Counted from the stretch's first letter, positions 34,978-54,789 are shown. The stretch: DNA of 64,000 bases from an uncultured delta proteobacterium (GCA_963789265.1 CAWBKB010000006.1:288001-352000), one strand, 5' to 3'. Numbers and translations are program-made. Notes: generated from the letters alone by a model not told the origin.

Positions 34978-37487
34978 ATGAATAACCATGCGTCTATAAA
35001 GCCTTCTCGCTCTGCAACAGAATTGGAAAGATTGCTGCTAAGCGTACAAAAGCCAGTGCGATATCTCGGTCACGAAGTGAACGCGGTACGAAAGGACCCG
35101 GGAAAGGTGAAGCTGCGGATTGGCCTCGCATTTCCTGATGTTTACGAAGTGGGAATGTCTCACCTCGGTTTGAAGATTCTGTACTCCATCGTGAATGCGG
35201 TCCCGGATTTGTATGCGGAGCGCGTTTTTGCTCCGTGGCCCGACATGGAAGCGCTGATGCGGAGGGAGCAGATCCCTCTGACAACACTGGAAACCGGAAC
35301 CCCCGTGGCGGAGTTGGATCTCCTGGGCTTTTCCCTTCAGTACGAACTCTGTGCCACAACAGTTCTCCAGATGCTTGATCTTTCCGGTATTCCTTTACAT
35401 TCCGCGGATCGGCGGCGCTACGATCCGTTCGTGGTTGGAGGTGGACCAGGGGCATTCAATCCTCTTCCGCTGGCTCCTTTTTTCGACGCATTTGCCATCG
35501 GCGACGGCGAGGAAGTTATTCTGGAACTCGCCACAACCCTGACCAAGTGGAAAGAGGAAGGAGGCTCGCGTGAAGATCTTCTTCGCGAATGGAAGAAGAT
35601 CCCCGGCGTGTTCGTTCCTTCCCTGTACTCGCCCGGTGATACTGTCTGTCGGCGCATCACATCCGAGCTTGACGAGACGAATTTCCCGTCACAGCTTGTG
35701 GTCCCTTTCTGTGAGACCGTCCACGACCGAATCGGTATTGAGATCGCTCGCGGTTGCACGCGAGGCTGCCGTTTTTGCCAGGCCGGAATGCTTTATCGGC
35801 CGGTACGGGAGAGGCAAGCCGAAACTATACTGAATGTTGCTCGGAATAATATCGCTTGTTCCGGCTGGGATGAAGTCAGCCTGTTGTCTCTGTCCGCCGG
35901 GGACTATTCCTCCATCGGTGGCCTGATCAAGCAAATGAGCGATGATTTCGGGCCGGACAAGGTGGCTCTGTCCCTTCCGTCACTGCGAACGGATACCTTT
36001 GATAGAGAAATTGGGGAGCATATCCGCAAGGTCCGCAAAACAGGCTTCACATTGGCACCGGAGGCCGGAACCGACAGACTTCGCCGGATAATTAACAAGG
36101 GAAATAACGAAGAAGACTTGGAGCGCGCCGTCACCACAGCATTTGAGCTGGGCTGGCAGTCGATAAAGCTCTACTTCATGGTCGGCCTTCCCCACGAGTC
36201 GGATGAAGATCTGGACGGGATTATAGGCTTGATTCGGAAAGCCTCGAAGTGGGCGCGCGGGGGAAGATCACCGCGTCAGTCTCCACCTTTGTTCCGAAGC
36301 CGCACACTCCGTTCCAGTGGGCAGGCCAGATTTCTATCGAGGAAACCATCCGCCGTCAGCAGTACATTCGCCGATACTTTCAGAAGGGCAGAGCCAAGGT
36401 GAAATTCCACACACCTCTGATTTCCTTTCTGGAAGGGATTATAGCCAGAGGAGACGAATGTCTGTGTACGGCGATTGAAAGTGCATTTAACAAGGGAGCC
36501 AGACTTGACGGCTGGAATGAGCACTTCAAGTTCGGCCTCTGGATGGAAGCTTTCGAGGAAGCGGGAATTGATGCAGAAAGATACCTCAATCCTAGAGAGG
36601 TCGGCGGCAAGCTCCCCTGGGATTTCATCGAGACGGGAATCAATCCTCAATACCTGGAAGAGGAGTGGCAAAACGCCTTGGCCGAGCAACTCACTCCGGA
36701 CTGTCGGCGCGGAGATTGCACTGGGTGCGGCGTATGCGATTTCGATAAGATCCGACACAGGTTGGCTGAGCCTTTGCGGCCCAATATCTCTGCCGAATTG
36801 CCGTCAAATGCTGCCGCCATGGAAGCCGTTGTACGCCGACTCAGGCTCCGCTACGCAAAAGCGGGCCGCATGAGGCTTCTCGGCCACCACGACCTTGTCA
36901 GACTCTTCCACCGGACTTTTCGCAGGACCGGGATGAGGCTGGATTATTCCCGGGGGTTTCACCCGCACCCAAAGCTGAGGTTTTCACCTCCCCTCGCGGT
37001 CGGTTTGGAAAGTACGGCGGAATACCTGGATTTCGACCTGGTCAATAGCAGCTTAGACGCAACGGACATCCTGGAGGCTCTCAAACAGGCCCTGCCGAAA
37101 GGCATAGATCCCTTATCTCTCGACGAAATATCGTTGAATGATCCACCGGTTTCTGCTAAAATCCAACAGGTTACATACGAAATTACGTTCTTGAATTCAG
37201 TATCACCCGAGGAAATATTGCGCCGTCTTGAAGAGTTCAAGGCTTCGCCCGTCTTCGAGGTCGTTACCGAACATAAAGGCAAATCAAGGAAGCGCAATTT
37301 GAAAGAATGGGTATATGATCTAGCGCTTGCCGACGGCAAATTAAGAATAACACTTCGCAGCGGAGTTTCCGGGTCGGTGCATCCCGTAGCAGCGGTTGCA
37401 GCAGTGCTGGGCCTGAGTAGAGAGACCGTCAGGAATCAAGATATAGTCAAGATGTCCGTCGCGTTGGGCATGTCTTCAGGATTGTGA
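34978..37487 (+). CDS. TIGR03960-type B12-binding radical SAM protein fused to a TIGR03936/DUF2344 domain (apparent frameshift in the G-run near 36260)
   Basis: FPDVYEVGMSHLG, CTRGCRFC and APEAGT; second frame continues FVPKPHTPFQW, CTGCGVC and GFHPHPKLRFSPPL. Confidence 0.88.
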
Positions 37488-39031
37488 TGAGAGTCTCCAC
37501 TATAGCCAGTGAGATCGTGATCAACATCACTGAGCGGGAAACCCGCTTGGCGCTCATTGAAAACGGTCAGGTCGCGGAAATCCATCTGGAGCGCAAAGGC
37601 GAGCGGGGGATTGTCGGGAACATTTACAAAGGGCGTGTGATAAAGGTCCTTCCCGGCATGCAGGCCGCTTTTGTGGACATCGGCTTGCCGCGCGCCGCTT
37701 TCCTCTATGTGGGAGACGTCCATCTCCACATCCAGGACCTTAATTTTATGGTGAACGAAGAAGAGGACGAGGAGTCGGGGGAAGAGGCTGATGCTATCCA
37801 GGAGGGTATTCCCGAGCATCTGCCACCCATTACCCCCATTGAAGACCTCTTGCAAGAGGGAGAGGACATACTTGTCCAGATTTCCAAGGAACCGCTGGGA
37901 AGCAAAGGGGCCCGCATAACATCTCATGTATCCATACCCGGGCGACATCTCGTGTTCATGCCCACAGTGGATCACGTGGGGATCTCGCGAAGGATAGAGG
38001 ACGAGGCTGAACGCCAGAGGCTCAGGGATATCATCGCGCGTATCAAACCCCCTTCCTGCGGAATCATCGTGCGAACCGTCAGCGAGCATGAGAACCTGGA
38101 AAAGTTGGAAGTGGACCTGACCTTCCTTCAAGGAACCTGGCGGCGCATCCTGGAAAAGGAGAAGAAGGTCCCGGCCCCCTCGTTGATATACGAGGATCTT
38201 GACCTCTGCCTGCGGGGAGTGCGTGACCTATTTACGGAAGACGTGTCTCGCCTTGTCGTGGATTCCGAGGAGCACTACCACCGCATCCTCGACTTTATGG
38301 AAACGTTCATGCCCTCGTTGAAGCCATGCGTTGAACTTTACGACGGGGACGAGCCCATTTTTGATTTCTTCGGTATCGAGATGGAGCTCAACAAGGCACT
38401 TGGAAGAAAGGTTTGGCTAAAGTCGGGAGGATATATCAATATTGACTTCACAGAGGCCCTGGTGGCGATTGACGTAAATACAGGCCGCTACGTGGGCAAG
38501 CGAAACCTTCAGGAAACTATACTCAAGACCAACCTTGAAGCTGTCAAAGAGATAGCTTATCAGCTTCGCCTCAGAAACATCGGTGGAATTATCATTGTTG
38601 ATTTTATCGACATGGACAGGTCGGTGGATCGAGAAAAGGTGTCTAATGCTTTGCAGGAGGCATTGAGAAGAGACAAGCAAAAAACCAATATACTGAAAAT
38701 TTCCGAATTGGGCCTTGTCCAGATGACTCGAAAGCGAACACGAGAAAGCCTTACCAGGACCTTATGTGAACCATGCCCCTACTGTGAAGGCAAGGGGTTC
38801 ATCAAATCCCAAACAACTGTGTGCTACGAGATCCTACGTGCTATTTCCAGAGGGATAACAGATGAGTATTCGTCCTGCATCCGTGTCACTGCACATCCGG
38901 AAGTAGTGAAGCTGCTATTTGAGCAGGAAAGCGACCAACTGGAATCGATACAAGGACAGTACAATACGAAGATCCAGCTAAATCCGGATCCCAACCTATA
39001 CCAGGAACAATACGAAATTGTGAACTGCTGA
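37484..39031 (+). CDS. rng: Ribonuclease G/E family
   Basis: S1 domain GNIYKGRV, DVNTG, LRNIGGIIIVDFIDM and CPYCEGKG motifs. Confidence 0.93.
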   Translation: MMRVSTIASEIVINITERETRLALIENGQVAEIHLERKGERGIVGNIYKGRVIKVLPGMQAAFVDIGLPRAAFLYVGDVHLHIQDLNFMVNEEEDEESGEEADAIQEGIPEHLPPITPIEDLLQEGEDILVQISKEPLGSKGARITSHVSIPGRHLVFMPTVDHVGISRRIEDEAERQRLRDIIARIKPPSCGIIVRTVSEHENLEKLEVDLTFLQGTWRRILEKEKKVPAPSLIYEDLDLCLRGVRDLFTEDVSRLVVDSEEHYHRILDFMETFMPSLKPCVELYDGDEPIFDFFGIEMELNKALGRKVWLKSGGYINIDFTEALVAIDVNTGRYVGKRNLQETILKTNLEAVKEIAYQLRLRNIGGIIIVDFIDMDRSVDREKVSNALQEALRRDKQKTNILKISELGLVQMTRKRTRESLTRTLCEPCPYCEGKGFIKSQTTVCYEILRAISRGITDEYSSCIRVTAHPEVVKLLFEQESDQLESIQGQYNTKIQLNPDPNLYQEQYEIVNC

Positions 39032-39133: not shown

Positions 39134-40294
39134 TCAATGCGCGACACGCGAAAGTTCTAGGCAGCGACCGATAATCATCCGTTGCACTTCTGAAGTTCCT
39201 TCCACGATCTGCAGGATTTTGGCACTCTTGAAATACCTGGACACGGGATATTCCTCCATAAAGCCATAGCCCCCATGGATTTGGAGCGCGTCGCTCGCCA
39301 CCCGTTCAGCCATTTCAGATGCAAACAGCTTTGCCGCTGCAGCTTCAAAAGTGTGATCTCTCCCCATCTCTTTCAACCAGGCAGACTTGAGATACATATT
39401 GCGGGCCAGTTCTATAGCTACCGCCATGTCAGCCAACTTGAACTGAATTGCCTGGAAATCGAAAATCGGCCGTCCGAACTGCATCCGTTGTTTTGCGTAG
39501 AGCAGTGCATTGTCGAGGCATGCCTGGGCAAGGCCCACAGCCATGGCAGCGAGGGAGATTCTTCCAGTTTCGAGTACCGCGAGGTGCTGTGCAAATCCGC
39601 GCTCAGGATCTCCCAACAGGTTATCTGCGGGAATGCGGCAGTCCTCCAAAATGACCTCATGGGTGGCGCAAGCATGCCATGACATCTTTCTATAGCGCTT
39701 GCCCAGCTTGAATCCGGGAGCGTCTTTCGGCACGATAAAGGTGGAAATGATGTTTCCTTTGTCGTTCTTGCCCGTCTTAGCGGCCACGAGGACCACCGAA
39801 GCGTGATCGAGACCTATATTGGTGATGAACTGTTTCGTTCCGTTCAGTATCCATTCGCCATTTGATGGCACAGCCGTAGTTCTGACCGAAGCGGCATCCG
39901 ATCCCACGTCAGGTTCGGTAAGGCCGAAGGCGCCGATTTTTTCTCCACGAGCGATCGGAACGAGCCATTTCTGCTTTTGCGCTTCTGTACCAAACACCAG
40001 GAGTTCCTGACCGACAATACTCATGGTGACGTCCAGCAGCGCACCCAGTGTGATATCGCCTCTGGAGATCTCTTCGATGCAAATGTGAGCACCTACCCAG
40101 TCTCCTCCGCTTCCCCCATACTCTTCCGGAAAGGGTATTCCCATCATGCCCAAATCGGCCATTTGTTGCATGATGTCGTAAGGGTATTCTCCAGTCGCTT
40201 CCATATGCTCGGATCGAGGGGCGATTACTTCCTCTGCAAAGTCCCGCGCCGTATCCCTCATCATTCGCTGCTCGTCCGTAAGATCAAAGTTCAC
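39134..40294 (-). CDS. Acyl-CoA dehydrogenase
   Basis: FGLTEPDVGSDA, NGTKQFIT, RMQFGRPI, LQIHGGYG and IVEGTSEVQR; GTG start after GGAG. Confidence 0.95.
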   Translation of the reverse strand: MNFDLTDEQRMMRDTARDFAEEVIAPRSEHMEATGEYPYDIMQQMADLGMMGIPFPEEYGGSGGDWVGAHICIEEISRGDITLGALLDVTMSIVGQELLVFGTEAQKQKWLVPIARGEKIGAFGLTEPDVGSDAASVRTTAVPSNGEWILNGTKQFITNIGLDHASVVLVAAKTGKNDKGNIISTFIVPKDAPGFKLGKRYRKMSWHACATHEVILEDCRIPADNLLGDPERGFAQHLAVLETGRISLAAMAVGLAQACLDNALLYAKQRMQFGRPIFDFQAIQFKLADMAVAIELARNMYLKSAWLKEMGRDHTFEAAAAKLFASEMAERVASDALQIHGGYGFMEEYPVSRYFKSAKILQIVEGTSEVQRMIIGRCLELSRVAH

Positions 40295-40546
40295 ATTTAC
40301 TCCGTCGTAAAACCGGTGACCTGCAAAGCAGAACCGCTCGCGAGGGTATGTTTGGCCTGTAGAGCGGGGATTACCGCGCGGCCTTAGCTCAAGCCACCGA
40401 GGAGAGACCGCCGCTCCCATCCGCAGCTTGCAAGTATCACCAAGAGATGGAACCACCAGATGCCAAAACCTCTTTTGCTACACAATCCGGACCACATCCA
40501 GAGTGGAAGACATCTCATGGCATCGAACCCGAGGTCGCTAAAGGCG

Positions 40547-41386
40547 CTATTTCTTGTCCTCGTACCAGGCCTGGACCTTGGGTAGGTGTTTAGCTGCTAC
40601 TTGTTGGACGTTAGCCAGGGTTTGGTTCACGTAATCTACCTCCTCTTTCGAGAGGGGTTCCCATTTGATATATTCCATGTTGTTCCACCAATCGTCCTTG
40701 GACTTGATGCAAGGTTTGGTGCTGCCGGGAAAGGCTTGCCACATCGTGGGAGAAGTCCTGAGAAGGGAAGCACGCTGCTCTTGCAGCAGGAAATGATCTC
40801 TATTCTGCTTTCGACTGAAGTAGATGAAATCTCCGGGAGGTCCTATGAGGACCGCCACTCTCGCAGTGCAGTCCGGCATAAAACCTACCCCTGCGCATGC
40901 TGCCCCTATAGTCCCCATGGGACGGGCGTCCATCCGGTACTGGTTCGCCGCCGCGCATGCGTAGTCGCAGGCAGCGGCCCAATCCATGAGCTTCCACGCG
41001 CACGATGGACCGCCCCAAAGTAATCCCATGCCTCCATGCTCTTTGGACCACTTGTTAAATTCTGCGCATGAATCGAAACCACAAGCGCCACAATCCCAGC
41101 CCAGCTCCGACCGGTCCATTTTGGCCCCGATGAGGACGCAACCTAGCGGCGAACCATTCTCTCGGAAGTGCTTCATGGTTCGGTGATCGAAAGCCATGAC
41201 CGGTGATATGGGGGCTAAGGCCCCGGCAAACTCGATAATAGGATCCTGATCCTCATCAGTCAGGATTTCTACCTTGATCTCCAATGTTCCGGTCAACTGC
41301 GGTGCTCTGTAAGCCGCTGCGGCTGCGAGCCTGGTCACTTCCGACACTGCTTCTCGGGCTGCCACCTTACCGTCTATTCTAGCCAT
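40547..41386 (-). CDS. DUF2148-family ferredoxin-domain / nitroreductase-like protein (paralog B)
   Basis: AAYRAP, DCGACGFDSC...GPSC and MDARPMGTIG motifs; 8-bp overlap with the upstream paralog. Confidence 0.75.
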   Translation of the reverse strand: MARIDGKVAAREAVSEVTRLAAAAAYRAPQLTGTLEIKVEILTDEDQDPIIEFAGALAPISPVMAFDHRTMKHFRENGSPLGCVLIGAKMDRSELGWDCGACGFDSCAEFNKWSKEHGGMGLLWGGPSCAWKLMDWAAACDYACAAANQYRMDARPMGTIGAACAGVGFMPDCTARVAVLIGPPGDFIYFSRKQNRDHFLLQEQRASLLRTSPTMWQAFPGSTKPCIKSKDDWWNNMEYIKWEPLSKEEVDYVNQTLANVQQVAAKHLPKVQAWYEDKK

Positions 41387-42173
41387 CGAGATCCTCCTGT
41401 TTCTTCGGGGTTTGAATGCGATAGTCGAAGTTGATCCCTGACGCGGTTTGGCGATTACAAACGAAGTTTTTCCTCGTATTGTCGATCATTTTCTCCATGT
41501 TGATGAGGTGGTAATCAACGTTCACGTCCTGGTACGGGCTCTTGGAGAGAGTCGCCATCGGAAGTCCCACTATAATGGCCGAATCCGAACAGTAACCCAG
41601 CTTCTGTCCCGCCAGTCCCACGCTCATGAACGGTCTGGCATCAACGAGCAGTGTCTGGGCCATCCATATCGCTGATGCCCACGCGTAGCCCAGATCATCG
41701 ACCCGCGCGCCGCATAGCGGCCCCTTTATCGGAGTGGAGCTCCTCTTGTCCGTAATGTCGACCAGGCCTTCTTTTGACTCCCTTCGCGTGTAGAGGAATG
41801 AGCATCCCGCCGGACCGCCGCACAAACCGCAGTTAGCATCGAGAGGCGTCTCGTGTGCACGATAGTTCCCAAGAAACAGAATGACGTCCGACTCCCTCAC
41901 CATGACTGCTTCGTTGAGAAATCGCCTTTTCCACCGGTCGTTGGTGTGCGCCAACTCTTCCATTTTTCTTGCGACCTTTTCCAACTCCTCTTGCCCGTAA
42001 ACGACATGGGCCTGCACCTGCGGAACACCACCAGCCACCGGAGCAGTCAATGCTGCGTTCATGCATAATCGTGCGGCTATGATTGTTGCTTCTCTCCGTC
42101 TAAGGTCCTGCGGAGAATAGCGCGGCCAATCACCCACATGCTCCTCGCCTCTTAATTGGTCAAATCGCTCCAT
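41379..42173 (-). CDS. DUF2148-family ferredoxin-domain / nitroreductase-like protein (paralog A)
   Basis: AALTAPVAGG, NCGLCGGPAGC...GPLC, DLGYA, VDARPFMSVG and KSPYQD; AGGAGG RBS. Confidence 0.8.
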   Translation of the reverse strand: MERFDQLRGEEHVGDWPRYSPQDLRRREATIIAARLCMNAALTAPVAGGVPQVQAHVVYGQEELEKVARKMEELAHTNDRWKRRFLNEAVMVRESDVILFLGNYRAHETPLDANCGLCGGPAGCSFLYTRRESKEGLVDITDKRSSTPIKGPLCGARVDDLGYAWASAIWMAQTLLVDARPFMSVGLAGQKLGYCSDSAIIVGLPMATLSKSPYQDVNVDYHLINMEKMIDNTRKNFVCNRQTASGINFDYRIQTPKKQEDLDG

Positions 42174-42229
42174 AAAAGACCTCCTGAGTTGGGCTGTTAT
42201 AGTGCCGTTAACACTTGTGCGGTCGCCTT

Positions 42230-43411
42230 TCACCTGGTTAGAATGTGGACGCACATTGCCGCGACGTCACCTCCGATTAGGCCGCCGCCGTTGTGTACCA
42301 AACCGACCCGTGCGCCTTCAACCTGGCGCTTACCGGCTCGTCCTCGCAACTGCGTCACGATTTCGTAAACCATCGCCAACCCTGTGGCTCCAACCGGGTG
42401 CCCCTTCGATTCAAGCCCTCCACTTGGGTTTATTGGAATGCTTCCTCCTATTTCGGTCCGTCCTTGATCTATGAATCTCCAAGCTTCGCCCTTCCGGCAG
42501 AAGCCGATTTCTTCGAAATAGAGCAATTCCGCTGGCGAGAATGCGCTGTGAATTTCTGCGAGGTCCACATCTTCCGGGCCGATGCCCGCGAGTTCAAAGG
42601 CTTGTCGAGCTGCCATTTGGGTTGCGCTCGGCTTCTCAACGTCGATGCGCATGTCCTGATAGCCTCCCGAAGCCATGCCTATTGCGGCTATCCGGACCGG
42701 GTCTGAACGATACCTTTTCGCAATCTCTTCAGCGCACAGGATTGCGGCGGCGGCTCCGTCACCGATAGGGGAACACATATACAGGGTAATGGGATCGGCT
42801 ATCATCTTCGAGTTCAGCACATCCTCTACGGTCAACATGTGCTGAATCTGGGCATGGGGATTGAGGCAGCCGTTCTTATGATTCTTGACCGAAACCTTTG
42901 CGAAGTGTTCTCTCGTGCAGCCTGTTTCATACATGTATCTCTTGGCGTCCATGGCGTACAGACCGGGAAAGAACACCCCCATGTTACCCTCGATTTCCAC
43001 GTCGGTGCATGTTGCGAGCGCGCGAGTGGTTTTGGCGGTGTCTCCGACGTAAAGTTTCTCGAAGCCGACGGCCAGTGCCACGTCGCAAAAGCCCGAAGCT
43101 ATCGCCAGCCACGCTTCCCTCAACGCTGTTGAGGCCGAAGCGCAAGCATTGGGAGTATTGATGATGGCTTTGCCGGCGAGCCCCGCTTCCCGCATCACTA
43201 CCTGGCCTCGTACGTCTTCCTGACCTGAGAGGAGGCCATCTACAGCATTGCCGCAGTAGATGGCCTCAATGTCTTCGGGCCGTACGCCCGCGTCCTTGAT
43301 GGCTCCCCAGGTTGCCTCACAGGCAAGATCCTTAGTCTTCCTGCCTGCATGCTTCCCAAATTTGGTCATACTGACGCCGACAATTGAAACCTGCCTGGCC
43401 AATGCACCCAT
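42230..43411 (-). CDS. SCP2/SCPx-type thiolase family protein
   Basis: NACASAS, CSPIGDGAAA, AEIHSAF, NPSGGLESKGHPVGATG and HNGGG motifs. Confidence 0.9.
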   Translation of the reverse strand: MGALARQVSIVGVSMTKFGKHAGRKTKDLACEATWGAIKDAGVRPEDIEAIYCGNAVDGLLSGQEDVRGQVVMREAGLAGKAIINTPNACASASTALREAWLAIASGFCDVALAVGFEKLYVGDTAKTTRALATCTDVEIEGNMGVFFPGLYAMDAKRYMYETGCTREHFAKVSVKNHKNGCLNPHAQIQHMLTVEDVLNSKMIADPITLYMCSPIGDGAAAAILCAEEIAKRYRSDPVRIAAIGMASGGYQDMRIDVEKPSATQMAARQAFELAGIGPEDVDLAEIHSAFSPAELLYFEEIGFCRKGEAWRFIDQGRTEIGGSIPINPSGGLESKGHPVGATGLAMVYEIVTQLRGRAGKRQVEGARVGLVHNGGGLIGGDVAAMCVHILTR

Positions 43412-43421
43412 CTAAAACCTC

Positions 43422-43859
43422 TCAGTGTGGCTCTCCGTCTTCTCTTCGGGGCCTGAAAGCATACCCTATCAGTTCGCTCCCATCTTCCGCCCTATGGAGA
43501 GCTTGGAAGACGATTTCCATTTCCATGCCGATGTGGAGAGATTCCTCGCGCGGCTCGCATCCTGTGATTACCGAAAAGATTCTCACCTTTTCCGGTAAAT
43601 CGATCTTGCCCGTCACATAAGGTGCCTCAAATCCCGTCGGAGCCACCTGGTTGACGGAGTACGCATAGAGGGTGCCTCTCTTGCTCAAAGCGATTTCTCT
43701 TGCCGAGTCCTGCGCCAAGCAGTGGGGGCACACCAGCCGTTTGGGAAACACTATCGCATGACATTCGGAGCATTTCCCGCCTAGCAAGAATCCGCGCTCC
43801 AAGGAATCGTCCGGTAAAGCAAAGAGCCCGTCGGCAACTTTCTTGAATGTGTGAGTCAT
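43422..43859 (-). CDS. DUF35 family (Zn-ribbon + OB-fold) thiolase partner
   Basis: CSEC...FPKRLVCPHC, GTLYAYS, PYVTG and IGMEME motifs. Confidence 0.9.
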   Translation of the reverse strand: MTHTFKKVADGLFALPDDSLERGFLLGGKCSECHAIVFPKRLVCPHCLAQDSAREIALSKRGTLYAYSVNQVAPTGFEAPYVTGKIDLPEKVRIFSVITGCEPREESLHIGMEMEIVFQALHRAEDGSELIGYAFRPRREDGEPH

Positions 43860-43961
43860 CTCGACCACCTTTGAGTCCTGGCTGCAAAGGATTAATTCAC
43901 CTTGTGGCATTCATGACGGAGCTGGACCGGAAGTGAATCCTGCAGGCTCAGGCCGTCTCCC

Positions 43962-45329
43962 TCAGAGTTTGTACAGTTCCTCTATGAATTTTGTCTTCTT
44001 ACTCGACCGCTCAAGGGTGTTTGGCGCCACCCAGGTAATTGCGGGCTGGATCTTCAGATACAGATGCATGTCCTCGAGGATTTCTACTTCGAGCCTAGCA
44101 AGATCTTCGCGGGCAGTGCCCTCACCATATTCCACCTTTAGCTTTAAGGGCGGAACCACCCGCGGGGGCGGCTCCTCAAGAAGGATCTTGAAGGCTCCTG
44201 TAACGCGTGGGACGAACGACTGAATGACCCCCTGAATGCCCGCGGGATAGACGGGCACACCCTTTACTTTGAGCATGTCGTCTGCACGGCCGACGACCTT
44301 GTACCGTAATCCGCTGAGGCCGCAAGGACACGGCTCGGTGAAGACCTGGTGAATATCGTTCAGAGTATAGCGGAGACTCCAGAAGAAGTGGCCGTGTTGG
44401 GGCTCAAGCGGGGTGAAGACCGCCAATCCTGTAGCCCCGTTCTCCAGAGGGATCGGTTGCTTCGTTTCGGGGTCTATTAGTTCATAGTAGCAGTAGTCAT
44501 CGGCCACCCAGTGCATGCCCTGGTACACGGGATGGTCGCACGATATTCCGTACCCGGCCCCTATATCGACCGCTTTGGCCCCGTACTCCGTCTCCAGTCG
44601 TTGTCTTACCTCGGGTATTCCAGCGCCCGGTTCGGCGCCGCATATGAGAACGCGGAATCCAAGGGAGCTGATTGGTTCTCTGAGGACCTCCTGGCTTCGT
44701 TCGATGAGGTGGAGAGCAAGCGAGGGGGTCCCGGTAAATATGGTAGGTTTGAACGCTTTGAAAAGGTGCAGCAGCCGCTCCGTTCCCGCCTCCGCGCCCA
44801 TGGGGATGATTTTTAGTCCGGGAATGCCGCGATACCAGAACATCTGGGGTGTGCCGGCCGCATGCATACTGAGCCCAAAGCAAATTGCCAGCCTGTCTCC
44901 CGGGCGAATACCCGCTCTCCAACCCATACGGCCAAAGATGTCCGCAACTCGGTCAAGGCCGCTCTTGAAAAGGGGATAAGGCGTCGGAATGCCCGTCGTT
45001 CCGGAGGTGGACGTCAGAAGGAAAAGATCGTTCCATCGCTCCGGGCCGAACAGGTCTTCATAAACCTTAGGTAAATCAAGGCCGCCTTCATCCATTGCTT
45101 CGCGGTAATCGGTTTGGCTGATGGGCGGGATAGCCCGTGCAAAATCTTCAAATGAGCGTATGTCTTCAGGTCGAACGCCGGCCCGCGCCATGCGCCTCCT
45201 TTCGAAAGGGACCTTGTCGTAGAAGAAACTGATCGCCTGAGTGAGGCTCTTCCACTGCATTTCACGCATCTGGGGAGTGTTCAGCAACAGTTCCATTTCT
45301 GGATTGAAATATGCTGAGCCTTTTTCCAT
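43962..45329 (-). CDS. Phenylacetate-CoA-ligase-like (PaaK family) CoA ligase
   Basis: STSGTTGIP, GAEPG, GRADDMLKVKGVPVYP. Start at MEKG after GGAGGA, downstream of the sigma54 promoter. Confidence 0.9.
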   Translation of the reverse strand: MEKGSAYFNPEMELLLNTPQMREMQWKSLTQAISFFYDKVPFERRRMARAGVRPEDIRSFEDFARAIPPISQTDYREAMDEGGLDLPKVYEDLFGPERWNDLFLLTSTSGTTGIPTPYPLFKSGLDRVADIFGRMGWRAGIRPGDRLAICFGLSMHAAGTPQMFWYRGIPGLKIIPMGAEAGTERLLHLFKAFKPTIFTGTPSLALHLIERSQEVLREPISSLGFRVLICGAEPGAGIPEVRQRLETEYGAKAVDIGAGYGISCDHPVYQGMHWVADDYCYYELIDPETKQPIPLENGATGLAVFTPLEPQHGHFFWSLRYTLNDIHQVFTEPCPCGLSGLRYKVVGRADDMLKVKGVPVYPAGIQGVIQSFVPRVTGAFKILLEEPPPRVVPPLKLKVEYGEGTAREDLARLEVEILEDMHLYLKIQPAITWVAPNTLERSSKKTKFIEELYKL

Positions 45330-45402
45330 GCTTTCCTCCAGGAGCCCTAGAACCCTGCCGTCAATACCAGAAGGGAATGTTCGGTCGACTCCACGCTGGA
45401 AA

Positions 45403-45418
45403 TGCAATGCGTGTGCCA
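45403..45418 (-). promoter_or_regulatory. Sigma54 (-24/-12) promoter
   Basis: TGGCACACGCATTGCA, exact GG-N10-GC spacing, about 75 bp upstream of the ligase start and adjacent to an NtrC-type activator gene. Confidence 0.85.
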
Positions 45419-45832
45419 TAGACGTACCGGTCATGTCATAAAGCGTAGTCCGGGCTACAACGTGCCTTCATAGAATTGACCAATCAGGCCACCATTGCCG
45501 ATTTTATGTCGATCAAGTAAATTGGCGGTGACCGCCGGTAAGGTCACGGTTTACCCCGGCCGAGAGCTTAGTCGCAATTTGAAGGGGGATGGATTTGAGT
45601 TCCAGACAGATGGTTAAATGCAGGTGCTCGATCAGGCCGGCATGGCCTTCTCCCTCTTCCGGACCTCCTCGCGAGCGGAGGCCGACGATGGAGGGCAAGG
45701 CCAGGTAGGTAAAGTGGTCGGATGGGCGCTCATCGGAAAGTGAGGACTAGTGGGAACTAATCTGTATTTCGTGTTCCAACATCAAATGCTGTTTCTTGGA
45801 GCGCCCGATTCGTGGATCGAAGGGATGGTCAA

Positions 45833-45868
45833 TTTGCAAGATTGCGAGAGGTTTTGCAGAGTTGCGAA
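45833..45868. promoter_or_regulatory. Putative tandem enhancer (UAS) sites
   Basis: TTTGCAAGATTGCGAG and TTTGCAGAGTTGCGAA, near-palindromes offset by 20 bp. Confidence 0.45.
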
Positions 45869-45890
45869 ATTCCTGGAATGTCAATGCTTT

Positions 45891-47282
45891 TCATCCTTTG
45901 AAAGATATTCCCAAGGCATTGAGTTTCCTATAGATCGTTGACACATGAACGCCGCTCCGTTCCGCGGCCTGAGACAAGTCTCCACTGGTTTCCTCCAGCA
46001 ATCTGGAAAAATACCGCTCCTCGAAAAGCTTCTTGGCAAGTTCGTAGGTCGTATGAAAGAGATCTTCCTCTTTGCTCTCCCCCTTGTCCTGGGTATACTT
46101 CGATAGATCGCGTGCAGTGACTACGTCTTCAGCATGCAGAGCCACAATCCTTTCGACGAGATTCTTAAGTTCGCGGACATTGCCCGGCCAGCTCCGTCTG
46201 AGAAGACAAGACTCGGCTTCATCAGTGAGCACTTTCTTGTCCACCCCCATTCTCTTGCAAGTTTTGTCAAAGAAATGCCTTGCGAGAATGGGAATATCTT
46301 CCTTTCTTTCCCTGAGAGGAGGGAGAGTGACTTTTATAACGTTGATTCTATAATAAAGGTCTCTTCTGAATCGTCCCTCAAGGACTTCTTGTCCCAGATC
46401 CTTGTTCGTGGCGAAGATTAGCCGCACGTCGGTGGCGATTCGTTTCGTGCTGCCCACCCGGTATATTTCCCCGTCCTCCACTGCCCTTAGGATCTTAGTT
46501 TGAACACTCATAGGGGCGTCACCGATTTCGTCAAGAAACAGCGTGCCTCCTTGGGCTTCCTCGAAAAAGCCGCGGGTTACTCGCGAAGCCCCTGTGAATG
46601 CTCCCTTCTCGTAGCCAAACAACGCGCTTTCCAGGAGCGACTCAGGCAGAGCAGCACAGTTGATGGGAATGAACGCTTTTGCACTCCTGTCGCTCAGCGC
46701 ATGAGTGGCCTCGGCAACCAGCTCCTTACCCGTTCCGCTTTCACCTTCTATGAGGATATGACTGCCCACGACGGCGACTTTCCTGATTATCTCGAGCACG
46801 TGCTGCATGGCCGTGGAAGTGCCTATAATATTTTGGACGACCCTGCGGGAGTGGAGCTGTGTCTTGAGCAACCGGTTTTCGTCGACTAGACGACGGTGTT
46901 CCAGGGCATTCTTGATAGAGATTTTGATCTTGTGAACGTCGTCAAACGGTTTTGTAAAGAAATCAAAGGCTCCCGTTTTCATAGCGCTTACAGCATCGTC
47001 AATTGATCCGTAAGCCGTGATCATGATGACCGGTGTGAGATAATTTTGGGACCGGATAATTTTCAGCAATTCAAGTCCGTTTCCGTCAGGAAGGCGGACA
47101 TCCAGGATGATCAGGTCAGGCGGTCCTTCCGAGTTCAGGTAGTCTGTGAAGGCTCGCGAGGTGTCAACCGAGACGTAGCCGTACCCTTCGCCTTGGAGGA
47201 CTGTCTCAAAATAACGCCTCGTAAAAGGCTCGTCGTCTACAACAAGCACTCTAGGAGAAGGTGCCTGGTCAACAGTGCTCAT
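45891..47282 (-). CDS. Sigma54-dependent response regulator (REC-AAA+-HTH)
   Basis: [33 protein letters not shown] and a C-terminal Fis-like HTH. Confidence 0.96.
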
Positions 47283-48761
47283 TTGTCTTGCCTCTCATGC
47301 CAGCTTGGCAAGGTGATGAGAAAGGTGGTGCCGGCACTTTCCGACGAAACGACAGAGATCTCTCCTGAATGGCTCTTAATAACCCGGTAAGCGAAGCTGA
47401 GCCCTAAGCCCGCCCCCGAGCCTTTTTTGGTCGAGAAGAAGGGGTCAAAAATCCTTTCCCGGTTCTCACTTGGAATACCGATACCCGTGTCAGACACAGA
47501 AATCCTGATTTTTTGTCGGATTGTGTCGACACCAGCCTCGACAGTCAAGGTCCCACCTTCGGGCATTGCCTGCACAGCGTTGACAAGTACGTTTCTGAAG
47601 GCTTCCCGGAGTTGCAGAGAGTCCCCTCTAAGTGCGGGAAGAGAGTCATCCAATGCTTTGATTAATCTCACCCGGCTGAACCGGTCTCTCTGCTCATTGA
47701 GAGCAACTTCCAGCGCGCTTTCGAGGATCTCGCGCAGGTCTACTGTGTGAAACGTGCTTCTCGGTTCCCGCAGGCTCTTAATCATGGTCGCAAGCATCGT
47801 ATGGCACTTGCGGGCAGCCTCGTGGATCGTGTCCACAAGAGCTCTGTTTGGATCCTGTGGATTCATCCTTTCCAACAGGAGATAAGAGAAGTTAGCCACG
47901 CCTACCAGCGGGTTGTTCAACTGGTGTGCTATTCCGGCCATCAGCTCGGAGTAGATAGCGAGCTTCTCAGACAAGGCGAGTTTTTCTTCCATGGCCCTTT
48001 CCCACGTCATGTCAGTCAAAAGGAACAATTTCGCCTGCACCTGGTCGTTTTTTCCCAGGATGTCTCTCACGTACATCCGCGCGGGGAAAGGCTCACCGTT
48101 TTCGCGTTCGCAAGTCACTTCTACCGGTTCTCCACTGAGAGCGATGGATAACCACAGGTCCAGTTTCGGAGGCTCTTTGAGGGTAAACGACACATGTCGG
48201 CCCACAAAATACTCCCGACCATATAGAAATGCCTCCTCGGCGGTCTTGTTAGCCGATTGTATGATGCCACTCTGGTCGGTGGTGATGACGACATTGGGCG
48301 AGGAATCAATCAAATTTGTCAGAAAGTTGTTGGACTCGGCCAATTGGCGGGAGAGTTCCTGGATGTCTCTCTTGTCTTGCTGCATTTCGCTGGAGACGTC
48401 GTGCATGAGCACGAAACCAGCTTTCCCGGAGAGTGCTGCACCCCGAGAAAGTGCTGATACCTTCTCGTCATAGTACCTGAGGATACACTTCATGTACGGT
48501 CGATTGAAACGGTTTCTCGTTTTGTAGCAGTTGCCAATAGTCACCCATGATGCCCTGCTCGAAAAGCCTGTCCCACTTCTCGTGGAAATAGCTTCCAAGG
48601 ACCATTTCCCGCCTGATTCTGGAAATTTCCTCTTGCCACCGATTCATCATGAGGATTCTTCCCTCTGAGTCAGTAACTATGATACCCGTTGGGATGTTTT
48701 CGATAATGTTTTCGAGGAAAGCGATCCGTGCTCGAAGATCGTCTATAGTTCTCTTGCTCAT
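47279..48761 (-). CDS. Cytoplasmic double-PAS sensor histidine kinase (apparent +1 frameshift near 48476)
   Basis: PAS1 in ORF 48468-48776 joins the PAS2/HisKA (IAHQLNNPL)/HATPase (NAVQA, DTGIG, PFFSTK, GLGL) frame through YPQ|YYDEK; 4-bp overlap with the regulator. Confidence 0.85.
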
Positions 48762-49320
48762 GAAAGGATCCCTCACTCGTAGGCATCACGGCAAATCGAT
48801 GGCGAACTAAACACAAACAGCTCAACCCGGTCCTGACAGGTGCAACATGTAGGCCAGTCGATCGCCATGCTGGTTTCTCATAGCCGGAGAGAGATCTGCC
48901 TATCGTCGTACAAGGGAATCGACCCGCAGATGCAAACCATGTTTCCGGGACCATACTACAGGCATTAGAGTGCGGGCAAGGTTACGAAGATCGCTCTCGA
49001 ACAGTTTGTGGGCCTGAGCGCTTTCGATCACGTGCAATCAACATGAGCCTGCCCGGCTTTGAAGTTCAATTAACGGTCATACCTCAGAGGAGGCCTCCAG
49101 TAGACCGCGATAGCGGCTTGTGGGCCTGGAATTGGCGCCTTGGGTAAAGGGAATCGGGGCTAAACGATAAAGGCAACCGGGGTATTGCAGGGACCTTGGA
49201 GGCAATGACTGCTGGATTCGTCAGAATCATACTGTTATGCTTGTGCTGGACGGTTAATGGTCCTTACGGCTGCCAGATTAATTTCGCCTAAGAATCCGAT
49301 TCGATGAGTGAGACGTCACG

Positions 49321-50394: not shown

Positions 50395-51513
50395 TTAGTA
50401 CTTGAACTGAGTCGACTGCCGCCACGTGGTATAAGCGAATCTGTAGTCGTCGATCAGGTGATGGGTGAAGGGTATATTGGTCTTCCCGAAAAATCTCTCC
50501 CAGCCAATCCGTTCCGCCCAATCTCCCAGACGCTCATACTTGCGCGCATCCTTGGCGTACACGTCGACTATGTTCTTTACCGCTTGAACCGTAGTCGGCC
50601 AACGAGGGGGCTCGTTGGGGATGAATGGAATGACGACCTTGGAGAACTTCGGTTTGCTTTTCCTGTTGGAGAGCTTGCCACCGACAAGAATTGCTATTCC
50701 ACTTCCAAGCTCGTCTGCAAGGGGCATTGCCGCGCACATGGTATAGCAGTTTCCACAGAACATGCAACGGTCCGCATTGACTTCAAGGGACTTGAGGCCG
50801 GTTTCGGTCTTTGCGGGCTTGATGGCCGCAGTGGGACAGGCGGCTATTGCAAGCGGAAGCTCGCACAGTTTATCGATCCACTGATGGTCTACCATAGGGG
50901 GCTTGCGGTGAATTCCCAGGATGGCTATGTCCGAGCAATGGACCGCTCCACACATGTTCAAGCAGCACGCCAACGAAACCCTGACAGGGGCAGGAAGTCG
51001 CATCTGGCCGAACTCGTCATAGAGGCCATCCATGACTGCTTTGACCACGCCGGAAGCATCAATCGCGGGCGTGTGGCAGTGAGCCCATCCCTGAGTATGA
51101 ACGATGTTGGTAATACCCGCGCCGGTTCCGCCAATCGGGAACTTGTTTGAACCCGCGGCGAATTTCCTGCTCTTGAGGTCATCCAAAAGGGGCTTGACCT
51201 TGCTTTTGTTGTCCACCATGAACTCGATGTTATTCCTGGTAGTGAACCTCAGATAGCCGTCGCAGTGTTTGTCTGCGATTTCGCAGATCTCACGGAGATG
51301 CTCGATGCTCATGAGTCGGCACCCGCCCACGCGAACGGTATAGACTTCATCGCCACTCTCGGCCACGTGAACGAGCACGCCTGGCTCCAGGATTTCATGG
51401 TAGAGCCACTTGCCGAAATTTTTCTTGATTACGGGCGACAGGAAGTCCCTGAAATATCTCGGTCCTATATCAGTAATTCTATCCTTTTGCGGATCTGCAG
51501 GATCGTAAGGCAT
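50395..51513 (-). CDS. dsrB: Dissimilatory sulfite reductase beta subunit
   Basis: [31 protein letters not shown] and [11 protein letters not shown]. Confidence 0.98.
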
Positions 51514-51528
51514 ATTTTCAACCTCCTG

Positions 51529-52819
51529 TTATCTCTGGTGTTTCTTGCGGTAGTCTTCGATGTCACGCGTCCAGCCGCCTTCAACCTCTTCTTCTTTCCA
51601 GAAGATGTACGGGTTGGATCTCGGCTCGTCGACCATTCTCGGGTCAGGGTCGAGCTCTACTACGCGCAAGAACTCTTGCATACTCTTACGCTGGATAAGC
51701 TCACCGAGCCGTTCGCGGTTCTTACCTTCTTCCATCCACCAGTCCCACACCTTTTCGATTAGATCTTTGAGCTCACTGAAGGGAGGTTCCATCTTCATGA
51801 ATGGGACGGTCAAAGTGGACATCTGAGCGCCTTCCAAAATCGGGGCTTTGGCGCCAAAGAGGATTGACGCACCAGTGTCCTGCCCGATTCTCAGGGCTCG
51901 CGGCATAGTGTTCAGGCAGTGCATGCAGCGAGTGCACTCTTTGTTATTGATTTCGAGCTTGCTGCCATCCCAGCTCATGCAGTCGGTTCGGGCAAAGATC
52001 GATCACTTCTTTCTGAATGTCAAACTTGCCCCAGTCTCGTCCTGAGTGGGCACCGGCGTTGGGTTTGAGCTCCCCGCCAACGTAAGCTTTAGCGGCCGCC
52101 TGGTCAATACGGATGTCATCCCGCCAGGTTCCGATGACTGACATGTCAGACCGAGCTATCGATGCCACGCATCCATTGGGGCAACCATCAAACTTGAACT
52201 TGAACTTGTAAGGGAATGCGGGGCGGTGCAGTTCGTCCTGGTACTCGTTGGTCATCGTGTGACAGCATTCCTGAGTGTCGAAGCAGGCGAACTGGCACCT
52301 GGACATTCCCAGGCAGCATTCAGGAGTTCTCAGGTTCGATCCTGAACCACCAAGGTCCTGATTCAAATCGTGAGTTAGATCGTAGAAGAGAGGTTCAAGA
52401 TTATCCGTCTTGGTCCCCAGGAAGACGATGTCTCCAGTGGAGCCGTGCATGTTGGTTAGGCCGCTGCCGTGTCGTTCCCAGAGATCGCACAGCCCGCGCA
52501 GAAATTCTGTGGTGTAATACTTACTCGACGGCTGGTTTACACGAACTGTGTGAAAATGGGCGACACCGGGGAAATTTTGAGGCTGGTCGCAGTATCTGCC
52601 GATAATACCTCCGCCGTACCCGAACACGCCGACTATTCCACCATGCTTCCAGTGGGTAACTTTGTCCTCGTACGAAAGTTCCATGACACCAAGGAGGTCA
52701 TCCGGCGCCTCCTTCAACGCATGTTTGCCTTTCTCCACCTGCTGCTTGATGTCCGAGACGAAACTTGGCCATGGGCCCTTTTCCAGTTCATCAAGCATGG
52801 GGGTGTTGTGTTTTCCCAT
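51529..52819 (-). CDS. dsrA: Dissimilatory sulfite reductase alpha subunit (apparent +1 frameshift at 51987-51988)
   Basis: [18 protein letters not shown], siroheme motifs CLGMSRC / DGCPNGC. Removing one base restores [12 protein letters not shown]...CTRCMHC. Confidence 0.96.
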
Positions 52820-53112: not shown

Positions 53113-54789
53113 GAAACTGTCTCAAAAGTCGATTTTGGGCTCGCGATTCTCAACCGATTCTACTAATGAGATGTGAAAAGAGAATCGGAGAGGGAAAGGA
53201 TTATGCCGCAAATCAGAGCCGACTACAAGCAGGTGTTTCTGCTTCCGCCCGCTATAGATGACTGGATAGGGCCTGATCATCCAGCGCGCTTCATAGGAGA
53301 CTTTGTGGATTCCTTGGATTTGGAGGTGCTGGGTTTTCGAGTTCCGAATGGCGAAACGGGCCGTCCTCCCTATAGTACCGATCTTTTGTTGAAGGCATGG
53401 CTCTACGGCTATTTCAGCAGAATCAGGTCATCGCGGCAAGCTTGAGAAGGCATGCATGGAGAACATGGGATTGATTTGGCTGACGGGTATGAATGCAGCG
53501 GATCATAATACCCTGTGGCGATTCTGGAGGGACAACAAGAAGGTTTTCAAGGGAATATTCAAACAATCGGTTCAAGTGGCAGTCAAAGCCGAGTTGATAG
53601 GTATGGCGGTTCATGCATTGGATGGAACCAAGATCCCTGTCGGATCATCTCGGGAGAAGTTCAAGAACCAAGATCAGTTGGAGCGGATGCTTGAGAATTT
53701 GGACAAGTGCGTTGCCGACGTCATGACGGAGACAGAGAGGTGCGAGCAAGAGGAGGGTGGCGAATGGCGTCTTCCCGAAGCCCTGCAGGACGAGTTGAAA
53801 CGCAAGGAGCGGATACAGAAGGCCTTGCAGGAATTGGATAAGACTGACAAGAAGGTCGTCCATCCCTGCGAGCCGGATGCCCGGTACATGAAGAACCGGC
53901 GGTCTACTGAGCCCTCTTACAATGCTCAAGCGGTGGCAGACCAACAAAGCGGCATGATTGTGGCTGAGGAAGTGGTCGACGAAGGCAATGACAATGGGCA
54001 GCTTGTTCCCATGCTGGATCGAGTTCAGGAAAATTTGGGCGCAACCGCAGAGGAAACCGTGGCGGACGCAGGATACTTCGCATCGGCTCAAATCGCGTTG
54101 GCCGAAGAGAAGGAGTACGAGGTCTTGGTCGCCAAGTCGTCGGGAGAGTCCGCTGCGGAAAAAGGCGCTCAATGGGACCCTTATCACGCTTCCCAGTTCG
54201 TCTACGACCAAGAGCGAGACGTCTGTATTTGTCCGCAAGGCGCATCGCTGAACTTTCTTCAGAAGAAAGTCACAGGAAAAAACGGAAACGAGATCCGGCG
54301 GTATCGATGCCGGGACTACTTGACGTGTCCTGAACGGTGGAAGTGCAGCAAGAGCAAGAATGGCCGTCTCATAGACATTAACATCTATCGTGACGCAGTT
54401 GAGCGCCACCGCAAGAAACGGGAGGTCCCGGAAAGCAAGACGCTACTCCGAGCCCGCAAGGTGATCATTGAGCCGGTCTTTGCATGGATAAAGAGCCACT
54501 TGGACTTTAGACGGTGGACCGTGTCCGGATTATCCAATGCGAGGGCTCAATGGTCTTTGATGTGCGCCACCTTGAATCTCAAGAAGCTCTACAGCCATTG
54601 GCTGACGGGGCGTCTGGTGCTAACCGCGGCCTAAGACATCAGGACGGAGAGTGACTCATGGCTGCCTGAGGCATACTCATAGCCGGCCCCGGCTCGTCGG
54701 AGACAAGGGAGGCCAAGGTGCGAGATTAACCGCACCCTACCACCCCGAGAGTCGTCATCGTGCCACTACAACCGTTTTGAGACACTCTC
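53113..54789 (+). mobile_element. IS1182-family insertion sequence
   Basis: TIRs GAAACTGTCTCAAAA / TTTTGAGACACTCTC; 4-bp TSD TTTC (53109-53112, 54790-54793); encodes a DDE transposase. Confidence 0.92.
53203..54634 (+). CDS. IS1182-family transposase (apparent +1 frameshift near 53432)
   Basis: DHPARFI...GRPPY...LYGY..IRSSR|KLEKAC, DHNTLWRF, LDGTKI, YNAQ, VADAGY and IEPVFAWIK. Confidence 0.9.

Follow-up and report, generated by a model that had tools for sequence, protein, structure and literature searches.

In the bbs operon of anaerobic toluene degradation, BbsAB (7pxp) joins an SCP2-type thiolase, with its Cys and His, to a DUF35 subunit composed of a Cys4 zinc ribbon and an oligonucleotide/oligosaccharide-binding (OB) fold. 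A thiolase is also paired with a DUF35 protein in the archaeal acetoacetyl-CoA thiolase/HMG-CoA synthase/DUF35 complex (6esq, 6et9). We analyzed a 64-kb stretch of DNA from an uncultured delta proteobacterium, a soil bacterium of the sulfate-reducer type (GCA_963789265.1, CAWBKB010000006.1:288001-352000; called the window here, with positions counted from its first letter) and found eight co-oriented genes at 39134-48776. They encode a sensor kinase, a sigma-54 activator, a PaaK-family acyl-CoA ligase, a DUF35 protein, an SCP2-type thiolase, two DUF2148 proteins (A and B) and an acyl-CoA dehydrogenase (ACAD). Open reading frame (ORF) calls, Pfam and NCBIfam placed every one of these genes on the minus strand, as the initial annotation had listed them. 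The window locus shares with the bbs operon the thiolase beside its zinc-ribbon/OB subunit in a CoA-dependent operon with an ACAD. However, the bbs operon also contains a CoA-transferase (BbsEF), an enoyl-CoA hydratase of the ECH family (BbsH) and a pair of short-chain dehydrogenases (SDR; BbsCD), and none of these families was found in the cluster: a ligase takes the place of BbsEF, BbsH and BbsCD are missing, and the DUF2148 pair is present instead. In contrast to the archaeal complex, the window locus has no HMG-CoA synthase gene, and its thiolase lies in a catabolic context with a ligase and a dehydrogenase.

We propose that the cluster is a catabolic operon for a carboxylic acid under sigma-54/two-component control, and that A and B form a heterodimeric iron-sulfur, probably flavin-containing, oxidoreductase that acts on a CoA ester; we put the chance that this proposal is right at about even. 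A (264 aa; 41379..42173, minus strand) and B (279 aa; 40547..41386, minus strand) scored 54.8 and 40.1 bits against PF09918, above its gathering cut-off of 25 bits, and the two are paralogues (hhalign probability 98.9% over 177 columns). The start of A corresponds to Met28 of its ORF (42173), and its homologues are 259-267 aa long. Each protein carries four cysteines inserted in the fold. The motif of A, C116-x2-C119-x5-C125...C155, is invariant or nearly so, and that of B, C99-x2-C102-x4-C107-x21-C129, has four invariant residues (Cys 99, 102, 107 and 129). B also matched PF04060 (FeS) weakly, a family that we take to represent the RnfB/corrinoid-protein type of cluster. All four ligands are Cys in both subunits, suggesting that the clusters are of the electron-transfer type and not of the Lewis-acid type.

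Both DUF2148 proteins are predicted to adopt the nitroreductase fold. The predicted model was good for B (predicted local distance difference test, pLDDT, 86) and moderate for A (pLDDT 66.8). All rows listed by Foldseek for A and B were of the nitroreductase type (FMN nitroreductases or their relatives), with weak E values of 1e-3 to 0.2. A structure search with the B model that was independent of Foldseek gave Z scores of up to 9.4, and all but 2 of its 50 rows were of the nitroreductase type when FbiB-C, AlbAB, BmdC, CLA-ER, RubE7, BluB and IYD were counted as such, an assignment that we presume from their folds. Nitroreductases form obligate dimers that bind the flavin between their subunits; the paralogues A and B, which were always adjacent (54 tandem pairs were called), are therefore best read as a heterodimer.

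Among the fold matches of the B model were AlbAB (8uc3), CLA-ER (4qlx), iodotyrosine deiodinase and BluB, with Z scores of 7.6-9.1 at 10-18% identity. AlbAB is an oxidase with two different nitroreductase-type chains that desaturates C-alpha/C-beta bonds, and CLA-ER reduces the enone of a fatty acid; by analogy, both may be regarded as precedents for C-C redox chemistry on this fold. We know of no iron-sulfur cluster or CoA-ester activity in any of these four enzymes. A nitroreductase-like fold is also found in reductive dehalogenases and CblC, and the corrinoid Fe-S protein contains PF04060. A corrinoid instead of a flavin was considered for the pair and stays speculative, with no such structure among the fold matches of A or B.

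A search with the A profile returned 338 cluster representatives among 1.84 billion, only 20 of them at E <= 1e-30, and most of the 338 were short forms of 175-220 aa. These canonical DUF2148 proteins (PF09918, about 175-220 aa) have the Pfam domain and the cysteine motif in common with the window proteins. The window proteins differ from them in being long forms (264 and 279 aa) that are always paired and belong to a tight clade tied to acyl-CoA genes. In the ESM Atlas, DUF2148 clusters only were found. A is the more constrained subunit, being 74-85% identical in close loci across phyla where B is 55-80% identical.

An A-like domain was also found in fusion proteins. Seven clusters of metagenomic proteins of about 745 aa (P0121-P0127) begin with an A-like domain (50-57% identity), which is followed by Fer4_20 and Pyr_redox_2; the latter part is a GltD/NfnB-like NAD(P)H-FAD-[4Fe-4S] module. 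According to a review (PMC8097209), GltD-like modules supply a second protein or domain with reducing equivalents from NAD(P)H by way of low-potential [4Fe-4S] clusters, with glutamate synthase, dihydropyrimidine dehydrogenase and Nfn as examples. The fusion would make the A domain part of an electron chain leading to a catalytic site. P0121 gave no match in the scan of genome contigs and only GltD-like matches in 401 genomes of the phylum, where none among the matches listed starts before query residue 225, and P0122 matched only a GltD-like fragment in the metagenome scan. No longer forms of B were found, which is weak evidence.

The logic that we propose, in which electrons pass from NAD(P)H or ferredoxin via [4Fe-4S] and flavin to a conjugated C=C of a CoA ester, is shared by FadH, BaiCD and the aryl-CoA reductases of the old yellow enzyme (OYE) type, and the cofactor set of these enzymes matches the fused A-like proteins on paper. 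However, the pair is predicted to be a nitroreductase dimer and not a TIM barrel, it has no sequence similarity to these enzymes, and its reaction is a proposed one. The initial annotation had suggested that the DUF2148 pair supplies the missing redox chemistry. The fold, the cysteine motifs and the seven fusions to an NAD(P)H module make a redox role plausible, whereas the reaction itself we infer.

The DUF2148 pair was found together with CoA enzymes in many genomes. A scan with DUF2148-A gave 16 close loci, and the order ligase-DUF35-thiolase-A-B was kept in 9 of them, including two metagenome-assembled genomes (MAGs) of Bacillota; a kinase and an activator lie upstream in 4 of the 16. In the two Bacillota MAGs, the ligase, the thiolase, A and B are 69-85% identical and DUF35 is 55-58% identical, a TetR gene stands in place of the kinase and the activator, and no dehydrogenase follows B. 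The five-gene core therefore appears to travel between phyla in one piece, with a change of regulator.

We then widened the scan with a family alignment. The best 80 loci of 110 relatives were clustered with the window and a second locus of the same genome, and the clusters were named by Pfam. The counts below cover the 81 loci with a called DUF2148 gene (one further locus had none), and those in brackets a subset of 45 loci with at least four ORFs on each side. A CoA ligase lies near the pair in 65 of the 81 loci (41 of 45), an SCP2-type thiolase in 57 (37), an ACAD in 54 (32) and a sigma-54 activator in 35 (25). SDR or epimerase-type dehydrogenases were seen in 27 (18), EtfA in 12 (9) and an ECH hydratase in 7 (7). 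An absence of the pair from ligase and thiolase genes elsewhere would have told against the initial annotation; the pair adjoins a ligase in 65 of 81 loci and a thiolase in 57. Carriers of the module include sulfate reducers, syntrophs and Firmicutes and come from soils, sediments and groundwater.

The loci have two architectures. The first, that of the window, contains a PaaK-type ligase and DUF35. The second is commoner and consists of a sigma-54 activator, an SCP2-like protein, an AMP-binding ligase, A, B, a dehydrogenase and a thiolase, often followed by electron transfer flavoprotein (ETF) genes and an SDR. The A sequences also separate into two groups by their identity to the A of the window, none lying between 65% and 74%. 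Of the 21 loci with an A of 70% identity or more, 15 have a PaaK-type ligase, 1 an AMP-binding ligase, 5 neither and none both; of the 60 loci below 70%, 4 have a PaaK-type ligase, 44 an AMP-binding ligase, 1 both and 11 neither. The subfamily of A thus goes with the class of the ligase, which would be expected if the enzyme faces the substrate. The genome of the window itself carries a second module, of the second architecture, on contig C3 at about 900-906 kb (L005:3932-13871). It encodes a divergent 926-aa sigma-54 activator, a 131-aa SCP2-like protein, an AMP-binding ligase, A, B, an ACAD, a thiolase and a 149-aa ORF with no family. This sister module is also present in cultured organisms, namely Desulfatibacillum alkenivorans, Desulfocicer vacuolatum and Desulfotruncus species.

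The ligase, the DUF35 protein, the thiolase and the dehydrogenase that accompany the pair were compared with characterized enzymes. The ligase (455 aa; 43962..45329, minus strand) has AMP-binding (PF00501, 31.5 bits) and AMP-binding_C_2 (PF14535, 35.2 bits) domains, both above their cut-offs, which places it in the PaaK-like subfamily that had been assigned to it. It scored only 146.9 bits against the PaaK equivalog TIGR02155 (cut-off 646), and its best solved relative was 2-hydroxyisobutyryl-CoA synthetase (6hdw; E 7e-43, 150 bits), with PaaK at 123 bits. The DUF35 protein (43422..43910, minus strand), a putative thiolase partner, consists of zf-ChsH2, a Cys4 zinc ribbon with CxxC...CxxC in the translation, and OB_ChsH2_C, an OB fold; it reached 80.4 bits (E 1e-22) against the BbsA model, whose cut-off is 250. 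The dehydrogenase (386 aa; 39134..40294, minus strand) is of the short-chain type and has all three ACAD domains. It scored 412.4 bits against the AcrC model (cut-off 640), and its best PDB matches, 7szv and 5ol2, are of the butyryl-CoA-dehydrogenase-like (Bcd) type.

The thiolase (42230..43411, minus strand; Thiolase_N and Thiolase_C_1) scored 283.5 bits against the NCBIfam equivalog for BbsB (cut-off 750), so that both Bbs-like subunits are far under the equivalog cut-offs. The archaeal acetoacetyl-CoA thiolase 6esq was its best solved match (E 5e-77, 263 bits), followed by BbsB, 7pxp (E 1e-73, 252 bits). An alignment to the structures 6esq, 7pxp and 6hsj showed that Cys90 and the histidine of the GHP motif are kept and that HSAF replaces HDCF, HDAF and HDCF, respectively, which bears out the earlier description of an SCP2-type thiolase with a retained Cys and an HSAF motif. 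Cys90, His288 and His338 were kept in 63 of 63 aligned thiolases from related loci. Replacement of the Asp of HDxF (HSAF in 4, HNAF in 3, HGAF in 3) was seen only in loci with a PaaK-type ligase, and the others of the 63 aligned thiolases keep HD. The thiolases with Ser, Asn or Gly in place of this Asp come from loci L022-L035, which are PaaK-type clusters.

These comparisons bear on the substrate. The ligase resembles 2-hydroxyisobutyryl-CoA synthetase, the thiolase is about as near to the archaeal acetoacetyl-CoA thiolase as to BbsB, the dehydrogenase is Bcd-like, and the regulators are closest to AtoSC, although far under the cut-offs. The initial annotation had named an aromatic or heterocyclic acid, and this part is not supported: the ligase, the thiolase and the dehydrogenase resemble short-chain enzymes no less closely. 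Hints of an aromatic or hydrophobic substrate come only from the gene content of some related loci. FadH/BaiCD-like reductases adjoin the pair in 6 of the 81 loci. In L010, B is followed by a tripartite ATP-independent periplasmic (TRAP) transporter, as would suit a carboxylate.

Some related loci carry further genes that hint at a hydrophobic or aromatic substrate. One locus, L031 (14126-16540), encodes a glycyl-radical enzyme of the PFL2/glycerol-dehydratase subfamily, under all equivalog cut-offs, in a row with the DUF2148 pair, a PaaK-type ligase, a TetR protein, an amidohydrolase and two FadH/BaiCD-like reductases. In L036 (2398-5791; also in L032), genes for a Ycf48-like protein and an MMPL/HAE3 transporter lie directly 3' of the PaaK-type ligase gene; both families are common to the 'Nanopod' cluster in a paper on a benzene degrader (PMC13101534). 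In L098 (6953-15918) and L099 (5360-11564), the pair is flanked by a 369-aa protein with no family and two GlcD-like flavoproteins, followed by a PaaK-type ligase, DUF35 and a thiolase, and the GlcD-like proteins resemble candidate benzene-activating proteins #24 and #26 of the same text (PMC13101534). The 'Magic' gene cluster of the benzene-degrading ORM2 was examined as a possible counterpart and is not this module: in the passages of that paper examined, #29-30 are a hypothetical protein and a MaoC-family dehydratase, with no mention of DUF2148 (PMC13101534).

We also analyzed the layout and regulation of the operon. The distances from ligase to DUF35, thiolase and A are 51, 10 and 56 bases, A and B overlap by 8 bases, and the dehydrogenase starts (GTG 40294) 252 bases downstream of B. 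A sigma-54 promoter of the -24/-12 type, TGGCACACGCATTGCA (45403..45418, minus strand; TGGCAC-N5-TTGCA), lies about 75 bases upstream of the ligase ATG. It is the sole match to TGGCAC-N5-TTGCW in the window, where 0.02 were expected from shuffled sequences, and the consensus promoter reported earlier is thereby supported. The longest ligase ORF (490 aa) would include this promoter; the ligase start was therefore corrected to the ATG at 45329, which is preceded by GGAGGA. L006 and L011, the closest of the relatives compared, also have the promoter, and similar sigma-54 sites precede the operon in many related loci. Terminator and sigma-70 promoter scans gave sites no more frequent than in shuffled sequence.

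The NtrC-type activator (45891..47282, minus strand) contains REC, Sigma54_activat (E 8e-68) and HTH_8 by Pfam, with GAFTGA in its translation, and its start overlaps the kinase stop by 4 bases. With rpoN present in the genome, all parts of a sigma-54 two-component system were found: REC, AAA+ with GAFTGA, HTH, the -24/-12 promoter and rpoN. The domain architecture is that of AtoS/AtoC and NtrB/NtrC, and AtoS and AtoC were the best or second-best NCBIfam models. The best model of the kinase was AtoS at 212.9 bits (cut-off 646), and the activator scored 399.9 bits against the AtoC equivalog (cut-off 714). AtoSC likewise controls a CoA-dependent catabolic operon for a short acid, but the window genes lie so far under the equivalog cut-offs that they are not orthologues. 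Right behind the stop codon of the activator, some 420 bases before the promoter, the sequence TTTGCA-N3-TTGCGA occurs twice in direct orientation with a spacing of 20 bases (45833..45867, no strand assigned); these copies are possible activator binding sites. Palindromes of TTCGC-N6-GCGAA occupy the equivalent position in L009 and L010.

The kinase had been described as a PAS-PAS kinase. Both PAS domains are encoded, but the gene is split by a frameshift and is not one open frame. The first PAS (PAS fold, E 3e-8) belongs to the N-terminal part (48468..48761, minus strand; ATG at 48761), which runs into a premature stop, in a 102-aa ORF at 48468-48776, and the second (PAS_9), with HisKA and HATPase_c, to the remainder (47279..48598, minus strand; Pfam). 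The PAS-PAS reading crosses the frameshift because one extra base is present in a G run at about 48474-48477, a single alignment gap against L006, a 98%-identical Desulfomonilaceae MAG in which the N-terminal ATG shares its frame with the remainder of the kinase. One base at 48474 is likewise missing from contigs of two public runs (X3 and X4) of an approximately 94%-identical relative. The comparison comprises L006, X3 and X4; the nearly identical run X1 does not cover this site. Frame breaks of this kind also affect other genes of the nine-contig assembly, including DUF2148-B and the dehydrogenase of the second module (2-3 frames) and several hydratase matches; the split hydratase matches suggest that indel errors are frequent in the assembly, and thus the extra base may be an assembly error.

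From these data, the operon may be proposed to work as follows. The PAS kinase would sense the acid or a derivative and phosphorylate the NtrC-type activator, which would open the -24/-12 promoter. The PaaK-family ligase would form the CoA thioester. A and B would heterodimerize on the nitroreductase fold, with one electron-transfer [4Fe-4S] cluster in each subunit and probably a flavin at the interface, and would perform a redox step on the thioester, most likely reduction of a conjugated C-C system with low-potential electrons, or the reverse desaturation. Such an enzyme would be functionally comparable to the Fe-S flavoenzymes of the FadH, enoate-reductase or aryl-CoA-reductase type. The Bcd-like dehydrogenase, with ETF, hydratase and hydroxyacyl-CoA dehydrogenase supplied from elsewhere, would then yield a 3-oxoacyl-CoA, to be cleaved by the DUF35-bound SCP2-type thiolase.

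The cluster does not amount to a complete beta-oxidation operon. ECH, MaoC and 3-hydroxyacyl-CoA dehydrogenase (3HCDH) genes are absent from it, with the nearest genome matches 88-102 kb away, so the reported lack of a hydratase and a hydroxyacyl-CoA dehydrogenase stands. The cluster also lacks a transporter and an ETF for the Bcd-like dehydrogenase, and the nearest ETF is about 48 kb away. The rest of the 6.1-Mb genome has 27 ECH, 16 3HCDH, 12 MaoC and 8 ETF matches. The system can therefore not be called self-contained, as it had been, since its ETF, hydratase and hydroxyacyl-CoA dehydrogenase are encoded elsewhere and no transporter lies in the cluster.

The missing hydratase suggests another role for the pair, which we consider unlikely, namely that it replaces enoyl-CoA hydratase, or hydratase and hydroxyacyl-CoA dehydrogenase together, for a bulky substrate, and so turns the enoyl-CoA of the dehydrogenase into the substrate of the thiolase. 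ECH is rare beside the pair (7 of 81 loci; 7 of the 45 fully flanked ones) and SDR or epimerase-type dehydrogenases are commoner (27 of 81), and the common module with an AMP-binding ligase has a ligase, a dehydrogenase, an SDR and a thiolase, only a hydratase being missing. Of the eight other DUF35 loci of the genome, five have ECH or MaoC within 5 kb, whereas the window locus has none within 88 kb. However, we know of no nitroreductase-fold enzyme that hydrates, and four Cys ligands in both subunits leave no free iron for aconitase-type Lewis-acid chemistry. The NAD(P)H/FAD/[4Fe-4S] fusion speaks for a net transfer of electrons, for which a hydratase would have no use, and any of the 27 ECH and 12 MaoC matches of the genome could serve instead.

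A slightly less probable role is that of an electron carrier, in which the pair does not face the substrate and passes ACAD electrons to ferredoxin or NAD(P), as a substitute for ETF or a confurcating partner. This would account for the ACAD near the pair in 54 of 81 loci, for the absence of an ETF gene from the cluster (the nearest at about 48 kb) and for the all-cysteine clusters, which are of the electron-transfer type. The fusion partner, moreover, is NfnB/GltD-like, the bifurcating module in Nfn according to the review (PMC8097209). Yet EtfA/EtfB and a CCG iron-sulfur oxidoreductase share an operon with the pair and an ACAD in 12 loci, suggesting that the pair does not simply replace ETF, and the conserved core of the Bacillota has no adjacent ACAD. 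The subfamily of A follows the ligase class, and A, 74-85% identical across phyla, is tighter than B or the ligase. Because the evidence weighs against both an ETF substitute and a hydratase replacement, we prefer a substrate-facing oxidoreductase.

It is improbable that the operon runs in the reductive or synthetic direction, with the thiolase condensing acyl-CoA and the pair and the dehydrogenase reducing the product, as in reverse beta-oxidation or with an unsaturated acid as the electron acceptor. The closest solved thiolase, 6esq, does condense, working with DUF35, and 6fah is among the structure matches of the dehydrogenase. In anaerobes the Bcd-like dehydrogenases, CarC among them, work in the reductive direction. 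The electrons that GltD-like modules take from NAD(P)H are usually passed to a reductase (PMC8097209). On the other hand, an ATP-spending ligase, an inducible sigma-54 two-component switch and, in L010, a TRAP carboxylate transporter behind the pair are typical of catabolism, and the cluster has no ketoreductase or dehydratase for chain building. That the pair is a chance neighbour of the CoA enzymes, for example a general nitro- or quinone-type reductase, as its fold would allow, is very improbable given the adjacency to ligase and thiolase genes in most of the 81 loci, in several phyla and different gene orders, the second copy with the same partners in the same genome and the operon-like spacing.

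Several points weigh against the substrate-facing flavin oxidoreductase that we favor. A reached only 17.1 bits (E 0.007) against the Pfam nitroreductase family PF00881, whose cut-off is 23.5 bits, and B had no match, so that neither belongs to the nitroreductases by Pfam; the A profile had 0 matches to PDB sequences at E up to 10, and the A model is only moderate. The flavin in the pair is a prediction from the modelled fold. The fused forms are rare (seven clusters), known as sequences alone, and would indicate a redox link and not a substrate. In the Bacillota loci the dehydrogenase is outside the conserved core. The neighbourhood counts come from related, non-independent genomes with crude ORF calling and describe a pattern without being a test, and the rarity of hydratases near the pair (7 of 81) fits a replacement of the hydratase equally well. 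Finally, regulation may be defective in this organism if the break in the kinase gene is real.

The genes that flank the operon are unrelated to it and lie mostly on the opposite strand; they include a radical SAM/DUF2344/RNase G set, PrmA and sulfite-reductase-like genes. The first set (34978-39031, plus strand) lies in convergent orientation to the dehydrogenase gene and encodes a radical SAM protein with an N-terminal Radical_SAM_N2, a DUF2344 protein and RNase G. Beyond the kinase side, there are two NIR_SIR (sulfite/nitrite-reductase-like) genes and a DDE transposase, at 50395-52819 (minus strand) and 53456-54634.

A literature search found no paper that names DUF2148, COG4739, PF09918 or IPR019224, and searches with combined terms gave nothing relevant among the papers listed; PMC13416013 contains no nitroreductase, DUF35 or ferredoxin-like term. 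The route can thus still be called undescribed, with no characterized pathway or paper on the paired DUF2148 module in the literature searched. A 2021 review of iron-sulfur flavoenzymes does not contain the word nitroreductase (PMC8097209), and for this reason the pair, if it binds flavin, would be a new structural class of Fe-S flavoenzymes. We suggest, tentatively and with less confidence than an even chance, that the paired long-form DUF2148 proteins are such a nitroreductase-fold class and that, in strict anaerobes, they act on CoA thioesters in an undescribed low-potential redox step. This could be the reduction or dearomatization of an aryl- or dienoyl-CoA, or else a desaturation through which the thiolase would no longer depend on the classical hydratase and dehydrogenase.

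No enzyme is known yet for some of the steps by which anaerobes degrade bulky, branched or aromatic acids. The module described here puts a predicted two-subunit iron-sulfur protein at the center of a CoA-dependent operon with its own predicted sensor, and the cultured carriers of the sister module make the function of the pair directly testable. If the proposal is true, the module would be a form of beta-oxidation for recalcitrant acids that is widespread and mobile by horizontal transfer.

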